Source of the DNA: a phage
DNA: 64,000 nt
Strand: one strand, 5' to 3'
Sequence record: PZ256263.1
Part shown: positions 14,768 to 16,081 of the stretch, in pieces
How positions within the stretch are numbered: the first letter of the stretch is position 1
Layout of the letters: every line of letters begins with the position of its first letter
Translations under genes and position numbers: made by a program
The notes under the pieces: model-generated
The model's input: only the letters and a program-made list of their open reading frames with translations
Database searches by the model: none
What the model was told of the DNA's origin: nothing

Positions 14768-16081
14768 ATGATTGTTATCCCGATTAACCAAATTGAAGAT
14801 AAGGTTGCTCAACAACCTGATATCTCTGTTGGTCGTCACTTCATTGAACAGTTGATTAACAACAACTTGATTCCAGATGGTATCTGTCCCATCATTACTG
14901 GTGGGGCTGTTCGTGATGCTGTCCTTAATAACATAGCTCCACATGACATTGATATCTTTATTGTCAGAGGACAAACACCAAGAACTCAAAACACTTTCAT
15001 CCCAACTGATCGTTGGCAAGAGCTTGGACGGGAGATTGAAAGTAATGTGAAGGAATGGCTAGAGTCACAAGATATTGAATATGCATCACTTCTTGCTGAA
15101 GCTACAAACGAATCCTATGCTGGGGGTTCTCAATTAACATTCACTGATATTATTGAGTTTCAGTGGAATGGGGTTCGTATCCAATTCATGTTTAATTATC
15201 CTACTTCTATTGAAGAGGTATTGGATAATTTTCCTATGATGTGCCGTGGTGCGATGACTCTTGACAACTTATTCATGACTTCTCACGGATATTTGGCTAT
15301 GACTTCCCCTTGTCCAGTGGTTGTCTCTAGTCGTGAAATCAGGTATGTTCACAAGAAGTGGCCTAACTCACAAGTGTTGAGATTTTCCTCTCCAGCAGTT
15401 GCGCATCAATACATGGCCCAAACTCGATATCTTCCCACACCTCAGCCAGTTAGTCATCTAGTCAATGGATTAGGTCAGGTTTCTCTTATTGAAGATACAA
15501 CAAGTGCTCTATATTGTGTTAACCGAGACATGAGTCGATTCTTTGGAATCCCTTATGAAGAGATTCAGATTATGTCTAGTCTTCACGGTTCTGGTCAGAT
15601 TCATGCGTATTGGTCTGAGGGGTTGACAAATTTAACGACTAACACGGGTGGTGATCTGCTTGGTCGAGAAGAGGAACCTAACCGACACAATGCAATTGAA
15701 GGGGTGTTTGTAGCCCCTGCAATGCGTCGAGCACAAGAGTCACGAAGAGAAAGCCCTACTCGTAGAACATCTTTTGAAGAAGCTCTTGGTATTACAAGTG
15801 ATTCTATGGAGCGATGGATGGCTAGACCCTCTCGTGGTCGACCAAACGGCTTAACTGTTAGCGCACGTCAGTTCTCTGGTCAGGGTTTCGCTGTTGGTGA
15901 TATCAACGCACCTGTTAGGGCTGTGTGGGCTGATGAAGATATGGAACAGGATTTGGGAGATAGTCTCGCTGATCAATTTGTTGCCAACAACCCTGAAGTA
16001 TTAGAACCTCAAACCCGTACAGTTCGGTTTGCCGATGAAGCGGGTCGTGGAATCTCTTTTGAAATAGACGAAAATAACTAA
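14768..16081 (+). CDS. Pol-beta superfamily nucleotidyltransferase with CCA-adding-enzyme-like head motif
   Basis: Internal ATG at residue 20 of track ORF 14711; ICPIITGGAVRDAVLNNIAPHDIDIF matches the GGxVRD...DxD pattern; remainder unrecognised, acidic disordered tail. Confidence 0.5.
   Translation: MIVIPINQIEDKVAQQPDISVGRHFIEQLINNNLIPDGICPIITGGAVRDAVLNNIAPHDIDIFIVRGQTPRTQNTFIPTDRWQELGREIESNVKEWLESQDIEYASLLAEATNESYAGGSQLTFTDIIEFQWNGVRIQFMFNYPTSIEEVLDNFPMMCRGAMTLDNLFMTSHGYLAMTSPCPVVVSSREIRYVHKKWPNSQVLRFSSPAVAHQYMAQTRYLPTPQPVSHLVNGLGQVSLIEDTTSALYCVNRDMSRFFGIPYEEIQIMSSLHGSGQIHAYWSEGLTNLTTNTGGDLLGREEEPNRHNAIEGVFVAPAMRRAQESRRESPTRRTSFEEALGITSDSMERWMARPSRGRPNGLTVSARQFSGQGFAVGDINAPVRAVWADEDMEQDLGDSLADQFVANNPEVLEPQTRTVRFADEAGRGISFEIDENN

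Follow-up and report, generated by a model that had tools for sequence, protein, structure and literature searches.

What does a phage do with a protein whose N-terminal part carries the signature of a CCA-adding enzyme? The question is raised by a gene of sequence record PZ256263.1, of which a stretch of 64,000 nucleotides (nt) will hereafter be called the window. The window corresponds to the genome of a phiEco32-like podophage, of the genus Kuravirus in the subfamily Gordonclarkvirinae. According to the list of open reading frames (ORFs), the gene runs from 14768 to 16081 on the plus strand, as do all the features described below within it, and encodes 437 amino acids (aa) plus a stop. Its product, a predicted nucleotidyltransferase (NTase), appears from sequence comparisons to be a distant relative of Gad2, a phage protein that counteracts the Gabija defence system. 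The reading that we favour over the others, although at slightly less than even odds, is that the NTase is an active enzyme which would neutralize a host defence as Gad2 does, and which would be directed to its target by linear motifs of its C-terminal tail.

Around the gene, a 2.4-kb stretch shows 99.5% identity with Escherichia phage ev_rybdy3; with SU10, KM01 and Bas90, identity is 97-99%. The gene is the orthologue of phiEco32 gp73 and SU10 gp74, and its product matches the Gordonclarkvirinae NTase profile phrog_12715 over its full length (expectation value E 1.2e-244, residues 1-437 on profile positions 1-457). Translation starts at ATG 14768, and not at the upstream GTG 14711, because all 26 divergent homologues (down to 21% identity) begin at the equivalent methionine. 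A single nt separates this ATG from the TAA that ends the exonuclease gene upstream. In public annotations, the 100% identical protein of ev_rybdy3 is named 'nucleotidyltransferase', phiEco32 gp73 is a 'hypothetical protein' and the note on the NJ01 homologue reads 'tRNA nucleotidyltransferase/poly(A) polymerase'. In the SU10 study, one peptide of the homologue was detected by proteomics and the resemblance to the head of CCA-adding enzymes was already recorded (PMC4281155). This resemblance also appears in GenBank annotations. Our literature search, including the SU10, BASEL and Pectobacterium-phage papers, found no experimental work on the gene.

The conserved catalytic core of the NTase, made up of a head and a remnant of the neck, extends over aa 1-215 (14768..15412) and is kept in all family members. 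A core-only model built from 26 diverse sequences reached a predicted local distance difference test (pLDDT) of 88 and a predicted template modelling score (pTM) of 0.84. It displays the alpha-beta-alpha-beta arrangement of the Pol-beta-like superfamily, with G[G/S] and DxD. Motif A (14900..14959) runs from GGAVRD (aa 45-50) to DIDIF (aa 60-64), D60 and D62 being the predicted catalytic aspartates; it can be aligned with the corresponding motif of class II CCA enzymes, human and bacterial, and with that of Gad2. In the 26 sequences, which are 21-35% identical to the NTase, the invariant residues are G45, G46, R49, D50, D60, D62 and F64, and further along Y117, I128, Q139, P156, Y193 and K197. 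Such invariance of the motif residues in remote homologues, together with the full-length match to phrog_12715, indicates that the motif did not arise by chance.

Downstream of motif A, a beta-hairpin delineated from the alignment (15146..15190) carries [D/E]127-I128 and the invariant Q139-x-M141. Position 127 is D or E in all 26 aligned sequences and may be considered as a candidate third metal ligand. E130 was also examined as the third carboxylate and was ruled out, since this position varies (E/Q/D/N/S) whereas position 127 is kept as D/E. The Q motif, Q139-x-M141, is common to mini-NTases, small phage proteins described below, and to Gad2. Two further elements were located through a chain of profile alignments with hhalign. 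The first, F155-P156-M-M-C159 (15230..15244), corresponds in degenerate form to motif B of class II enzymes (RRDxTINA): FDxGIC of the mini-NTases falls on RRDxTINA, and FPxMC of the family falls on FDxGIC. FPxxC is found in 85 of 90 family proteins. The second, Y193-V-H-K196-K197-W-P199 (15344..15364), belongs to the helix equivalent to motif D, which reads REIRYVHKKWP in the NTase (aa 189-199) and is devoid of the ED..R templating residues.

Beyond the core, the models show a helical, family-specific and variable extension (aa 216-269, 15413..15574). Its ratio of non-synonymous to synonymous substitution rates (dN/dS) is 0.16-0.34 within Kuravirus, for three informative pairs, and it shows zero non-synonymous changes with respect to SU10. 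In the AlphaFold2 model of the whole protein, aa 1-269 are confidently predicted and pLDDT falls below 50 over aa 270-437. This last region (15575..16078) is a predicted disordered, net acidic and fast-evolving tail, with a net charge of -10, a basic patch at aa 321-360 (+3) and a charge of -10 over the last 77 aa. An earlier note on this DNA had pointed out the GGAVRD...DIDIF motif, which is indeed present. It had described the protein as a 130-aa head followed by 300 unrecognizable residues with an acidic disordered tail. The acidic, disordered character of the tail is borne out, the basic patch notwithstanding, and disorder is confined to aa 270-437; the head has to be enlarged, with a core reaching about aa 215 and a fold reaching about aa 269.

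The length of the tail differs widely by lineage. Family proteins range from 274 to 482 aa, and those of 274-320 aa have only some 60-100 residues after the core. Nevertheless, short motifs recur. YWSEGL (aa 281-286, 15608..15625), of the pattern aromatic-S/T-x-G/N-L/R, is found in most family members, short ones included, and its W282 and L286 are invariant in one family alignment; it would be suited to act as a docking motif. RRTSFEEALG (aa 332-341, 15761..15790) is common to Kuravirus, Nieuwekanaalvirus and the lineage of a distant member, P0061, with F336 invariant in one family alignment. Near the C-terminus, family alignments show RFADEAG (aa 420-426, 16025..16045), of the pattern aromatic-x-D-E-[A/S], whose counterpart in the Nieuwekanaalvirus group is VWVDESD. 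At the very end, 9 of the 26 aligned family sequences have a terminal W, F or Y; the NTase of the window has no aromatic end. Ends resembling the tip of single-stranded DNA-binding protein (SSB), that is an acidic stretch plus PIF, LLPF, VPF or PWF (compare DDDIPF), are observed in several Gad2 homologues and mini-NTases (P0096, P0098, P0099). Such an SSB-like tip may be a recruitment signal.

The placement of the NTase among other proteins was approached by profile searches. Among 1.84 billion representative proteins, only 31 clusters were retrieved at E<=1e-10, and the cultured members of the family are confined to 98 Gordonclarkvirinae records, from phages of E. coli and Shigella. Outside the family, a fringe of proteins mostly of about 170-290 aa appears with E from 5e-8 to 1e-3. 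Ten fringe proteins were scanned and turned out to be phage mini-NTases, which belong to phrog_1614 and match phrog_4400 and phrog_7967 more weakly; the Pfam PolyA_pol threshold is passed by 3 of them. In BFVD, small 'PolyA_pol head' proteins occur in many T7-like phages, and giant viruses have structural relatives with the same head fused to ankyrin, BTB or F-box modules. The precomputed Pfam assignment PF26128, named 'Gad2', is present on 30 of 44 close relatives of the NTase; on P0002, a protein with 92% identity to the NTase, it carries the flag 'weak' (E<=0.001). Of four mini-NTases looked up, three (P0096, P0104 and P0094) have this assignment unmarked, hence strong, and the fourth, P0095, has it as weak. 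Among distant family members, P0061 and P0082 have no PF26128 match on record.

Profile-profile alignments with hhalign, for which Gad2 sequences were taken from the supplement of bioRxiv 10.1101/2023.05.01.538930, connect these groups step by step. The family aligns with the mini-NTases with a probability of 99.4% (E 1e-21), over aa 17-201 of the NTase core, and the mini-NTases align with Gad2 with 98.6% (E 1e-15). The family aligns directly with Gad2 with 88% (E 3e-6), over aa 42-170, so that motif A, the Q motif and FP/FD-x-x-C are covered. The mini-NTases align with class II CCA enzymes with 96% (E 4e-9), and Gad2 with CCA enzymes with 45% (E 2e-4). We take the NTase, the mini-NTases and Gad2 as forming one phage and viral superfamily, which would descend from the head plus neck of class II enzymes, and in which the NTase is probably a divergent member and not an orthologue of Gad2.

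The resemblance to Gad2 rests on four N-terminal motifs whose succession is identical in the two groups: h-AGG...DxDx[F/Y]F, h-Q-h-h, F[D/P]xxxC and a basic-aromatic helix. Both groups are phage-restricted predicted NTases. However, Gad2 has GGxITS where the family has GGAVRD, and FD where the family has FP. Moreover, most of the compared Gad2 homologues have a mutually aligning C-terminal region of some 200-230 aa (about aa 170-400), whereas the NTase has a short helical extension and a 170-aa disordered acidic tail. Finally, Gad2 is encoded in a variable anti-defence locus, and the NTase gene occupies a fixed position in a replication operon. The mini-NTases have in common with the family a neighbourhood of primase/helicase and DNA polymerase genes, in addition to the shared motifs. 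They differ by their size (170-220 aa), by the lack of a long tail, by a patchy distribution and by the fact that some of them pass the PolyA_pol threshold and the NTase of the window does not. In Autographiviridae, mini-NTases were reported in 37 of 46 Pectobacterium phages and in only 60 of more than 500 others (PMC7693777). In the T7-like phages that we looked at, the mini-NTase gene is located between primase and DNA polymerase in one case and adjoins primase/helicase in two others.

What is known of these relatives comes from a few studies. Gad2 is the Gabija anti-defence protein of Bacillus phage SPbetaL7, the deletion of which leaves this phage susceptible to Gabija; a Brevibacillus homologue also blocks Gabija, AlphaFold predicts that Gad2 is an NTase, and the SPbetaL7 copy is toxic (bioRxiv 10.1101/2023.05.01.538930). 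Emajogi gp22, a mini-NTase, is cytotoxic on over-expression, and some of its phage homologues are annotated as members of the Gad2 family (10.64898/2026.09.15.751885).

A second line of evidence comes from the evolution of the gene. In every related locus examined, the gene order is primase/helicase, 3'-5' exonuclease subunit of PolA, NTase, dCTP deaminase, including in metagenomic relatives where the NTase is only 29-35% identical; a scan of IMG/VR added 6 more loci, all with the same synteny. In related loci, the start of the NTase gene abuts or overlaps the stop of the exonuclease gene. Within this conserved frame the NTase stands apart. Between the window and KBNP1711, identity is 94.6% for primase/helicase, 94.9% for dCTP deaminase and 86% for the exonuclease, and it is 42.6% for the NTase core. 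With ECBP2, the corresponding values are 94, 94, 79 and 36%. With the most distant contigs, they are 78-79, 74-79, 57-63 and 29-33%. The pattern is repeated in 7 loci, and the NTase evolves 10-50 times faster than the neighbouring genes. In dN/dS, calculated by the method of Nei and Gojobori, the neighbouring genes show 0.005-0.09, the NTase core 0.10-0.27 within Kuravirus and 0.37-0.49 between genera, and the tail 0.33-0.70.

Synonymous divergence (dS) of the NTase core is 0.007 with respect to SU10, where the flanks show 0.08-0.15, and 0.51 with respect to phiEco32, where the flanks show 0.16-0.19. Because the dS of the NTase disagrees with that of its flanks, its alleles must have been exchanged by recombination. 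Such a divergence pattern is that of a gene at the host-phage interface and not that of a housekeeping enzyme of the replisome or of a biosynthetic pathway. Elsewhere in the operon, an IMG/VR Kuravirus contig (L020, 5333-5860) encodes a dCTP deaminase only 57% identical to that of the window, although its primase/helicase is 99% identical; this dCTP deaminase looks like a second locally replaced allele.

From these data, we infer the following scheme. The NTase would be a catalytically competent offshoot, made of the head and a neck remnant, of the class II (CCA-adding/poly(A) polymerase) NTases. It would be made early, and translated together with the phage DNA polymerase's proofreading subunit. 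It would neutralize a host anti-phage system by passing a nucleotide, taken from a ribo- or deoxyribonucleoside triphosphate (NTP or dNTP), to its target. The target might be a nucleic-acid 3' end sensed by a defence, a protein of the defence or a small molecule; the enzyme may also make or consume a nucleotide that regulates the defence. Gabija, or another system that targets DNA or DNA ends, would be the leading candidate for the defence concerned. Targeting would be achieved by the short linear motifs of the long disordered tail and not by a tRNA-binding body/tail domain. In favour of this scheme, the GG, R49-D50 and D60xD62 centre is intact in a confidently modelled core, kinship with Gad2 is detected, if remote, and the gene diverges fast with exchange of alleles. 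Superfamily relatives are accessory, and some of them (SPbetaL7 Gad2, Emajogi gp22) are toxic. It should also be reminded that Gordonclarkvirinae are unusually resistant to host immunity, by a mechanism that is not known (PMC11990801).

Several observations weigh on the other side. BLASTP of the NTase against a verified Gad2 gave no match, the Pfam Gad2 match on the 92% identical P0002 is only 'weak', and the direct hhalign probability does not exceed 95%. The alignment is limited to the NTase domain and ends at about residue 130 of Gad2, leaving out a folded C-terminal part of about 230 aa, a possible carrier of specificity that the NTase does not share. As late as February 2026, the mechanism of Gad2 itself was given as unknown (PMC12904381), so that to say that the NTase works like Gad2 names no chemistry. 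In addition, the distribution of the NTase is not that of a typical anti-defence gene: each of the 98 cultured Gordonclarkvirinae records has it, and its place within the replication operon is fixed. A core role in replication or nucleotide metabolism would be compatible with this as well. Our literature search found no paper linking Kuravirus to Gabija. Lastly, activity is not certain, because the position that we take to be that of the canonical third carboxylate, from the register of the hairpin against a CCA-enzyme sequence, is apparently the invariant glutamine Q139.

Among the other possibilities, the most immediate is that the NTase adds or repairs the CCA 3' end of tRNAs, or tails RNAs, acting on RNA ends of the host or of the phage, as the earlier note had proposed. 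The closest solved folds are indeed those of class II CCA-adding enzymes and of PAP I. The motif A GGAVRD...DxD is that of textbooks and is followed by a remnant of the neck helices, and the hhalign link of the mini-NTases with class II enzymes extends over head plus neck. However, the other hallmarks of CCA-adding enzymes are lacking. The RRD of motif B is present in none of 90 family protein cores and in 7 of 7 control CCA enzymes. The EDxxR templating residues of motif D are not found at the equivalent helix; an EDxxR string does occur in the Nieuwekanaalvirus group at about aa 266, and it was rejected for its wrong position and lack of conservation. In place of a tRNA-binding body/tail domain, the C-terminus is disordered and variable. 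The score with the Pfam PolyA_pol head model PF01743 is 18.8 bits, below the cut-off of 23, and the NCBIfam CCA and PcnB models give no match at E<=1 with the full protein or at E<=10 with the core. Searches of the PDB with the single sequence or with a profile recover motif A only (E about 0.3). Likewise, hhalign of the family with seven CCA enzymes, E. coli Cca and six from phages, aligns motif A only, with a probability of 56%. Net charge was considered as an argument against nucleic-acid binding and was dropped: the pI of the core is 4.9, and the head-plus-neck parts of genuine CCA enzymes are likewise acidic.

Genuine CCA-adding enzymes are encoded in 463 phage records, none of them from Gordonclarkvirinae, and even in phages that are very distant from one another they remain 30-56% identical to E. 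coli Cca. In contrast, the NTase falls to 36-43% identity where its neighbours are at 94-95%, which speaks against an enzyme whose substrate, like tRNA, does not vary. As to the tRNAs, ARAGORN and Rfam both find 0 tRNA genes in the window, as stated in the earlier note. In ev_rybdy3, a tRNA-Arg(UCU) gene (22545-22620 in that genome), the single tRNA of this phage, would be placed by the coordinate offset about 2.2 kb upstream of where the window begins. Its presence would speak for a tRNA role, but this gene encodes its own CCA. Other small NTases do not offer a better match: no PADLOC profile of defence or toxin NTases (CD-NTase, MenT, AbiEii, MNT) matches at E<=1, and standalone CCA-head or minimal NTases (S. 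pneumoniae NP_344798.1, PDB 2la3; MenT; MNT) are structurally less similar than class II heads and have other motif sets. Overall, a role in tRNA repair is unlikely, and the proposal of CCA repair or RNA tailing is not upheld. The earlier note had considered that a profile match to an unrelated NTase family would refute its proposal. Such a match is partly obtained, with Gad2 and PF26128, and counter-defence, which the note had attached to tRNA ends, remains plausible, although it would be reached in another way and its target would probably be another one.

The neighbouring genes, all on the plus strand, are relevant to the next two possibilities. Primase/helicase (12425..14215, phrog_239 E 1e-175) is followed by the 3'-5' exonuclease subunit of a split family A DNA polymerase (14209..14766, PF01612 E 2e-8, phrog_17 positions 667-826), which appears to be translationally coupled to the NTase gene, its stop being 1 nt before the ATG. 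The dCTP deaminase gene (16091..16624, PF22769 E 5e-34) comes after a 9-nt gap. The polymerase half of the split PolA (23622..25466, PF00476, phrog_17 positions 836-1233) is 8.8 kb away from the exonuclease half, with about 25 genes in between; on phrog_17 the two halves are contiguous.

It may thus be imagined, although we hold it for as doubtful as the tRNA role, that the NTase participates with dCTP deaminase in a pathway of covalent DNA modification or of nucleotide-pool management, which would explain the restriction resistance of Gordonclarkvirinae. A role of this kind was suggested, without data, by Humolli et al. (2025), and the resistance of these phages to restriction-modification has no known mechanism (PMC11990801). 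The gene is fixed beside dCTP deaminase in a replication/nucleotide operon, and the loss of the ribose-sensing RRD would permit the use of dNTPs. The window contains 36 EcoRV sites (21 expected), 10 EcoRI sites (24 expected) and 10 EcoKI sites (7 expected): EcoRV is not depleted and EcoKI is as expected, and resistance to these three enzymes does not result from the loss of their sites. Other sites are strongly avoided, with 2 CCWGG (Dcm/EcoRII) for 98 expected, 140 GATC for 301 expected and 0 BamHI, PstI and KpnI sites for 11-21 expected. This avoidance, which bears by itself on how these phages resist restriction, indicates that their DNA is exposed to such enzymes and thereby speaks against a protective modification. 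The phage also encodes ThyX and a deoxynucleoside monophosphate (dNMP) kinase, making a simple replacement of T by dU unlikely. Moreover, rapid divergence would be atypical for a biosynthetic enzyme whose flanking partners are 95% conserved. No DNA-modification pathway is known to use a class II-like Pol-beta NTase.

Somewhat less probable still is a function of the NTase at the replisome, as an accessory terminal transferase that would perform untemplated nucleotide addition at the 3' ends of DNA or of primers, serving the replication of a linear, terminally redundant genome, after recruitment by its acidic tail in the manner of the tails of T7 gp2.5, T7 gp4 and SSB. The coupling to the PolA exonuclease subunit, the location of mini-NTases next to primase, DNA polymerase or primase/helicase in T7-like phages, the acidity of the tail and the PIF, LLPF or VPF ends of several superfamily members go in this direction. 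However, the NTase evolves 10-50 times faster than replisome genes and its alleles are shuffled, its relatives are patchy and dispensable in Autographiviridae, and the NTase of the window is itself devoid of the aromatic C-terminal tip.

At a similarly low level of likelihood, the NTase might be a protein nucleotidylyltransferase, resembling AMPylases, and would inactivate a host or defence protein selected through the motifs of its tail. The Pol-beta fold includes protein AMPylases. Conservation of short motifs within a disordered tail, the fusion of the same head to protein-binding modules (ankyrin, BTB, F-box) in giant viruses and the toxicity of relatives are all compatible with such an activity. 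Yet the nearest folds are those of NTases acting on polynucleotides and not on proteins. This possibility also partly overlaps with the counter-defence reading, for which it would be one possible chemistry.

Finally, we give little credit to a terminal transferase acting on DNA ends, or using dNTPs, that would be delivered to the replisome of the phage and would cap or alter the 3' termini of its DNA, so that defences sensing such ends (Gabija, Shedu-like and RecBCD-linked systems), perhaps also restriction enzymes, would fail to recognize it; if true, this would provide both a mechanism for Gad2-type NTases and an explanation of the broad immunity resistance of Gordonclarkvirinae.

Other features were observed around the replication genes. 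Upstream of them, a large conserved cluster (2627-12205) encodes amidoligase, COOH-NH2 ligase, glutamine amidotransferase, ATP-grasp and gamma-glutamyl cyclotransferase proteins, and even the most distant metagenomic relatives have it. After dCTP deaminase, three tandem paralogous ORFs (16625-17240; 65, 69 and 69 aa; 22-25% identity) share W4, T-R, A-R, K and a terminal Y, and have no Pfam match. Further on, a homing-endonuclease gene of the HNH_3 type (17636-18130) lies between a conserved 108-aa ORF and a Dps/ferritin-like gene; it is not at the corresponding place in SU10 and phiEco32.

The motif that first drew attention to this gene is correctly identified and already figures in public annotation. 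What is new is the systematic absence of the other features of CCA-adding enzymes, the quantified hyper-divergence of the gene within an otherwise frozen operon, and its probable placement in a Gad2-like superfamily, which in the literature that we searched had not been connected with Kuravirus. These results call for caution in annotating such genes as 'tRNA nucleotidyltransferase': the superfamily would consist of the head of a CCA-adding enzyme from which the parts selecting tRNA and nucleotide have been removed. Few anti-defence proteins are predicted to be enzymes; Gad2 is among them, and how it acts had not been solved in 2026. Every phiEco32-like coliphage would carry a divergent and fast-evolving relative of it, at a fixed place in the replication operon. 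The BASEL phages Bas86-94 would thus offer a tractable E. coli system to learn what such enzymes transfer, and onto what. For these phages, which are used in therapy, the NTase may be a concrete candidate to account for a resistance to host immunity that is so far unexplained.

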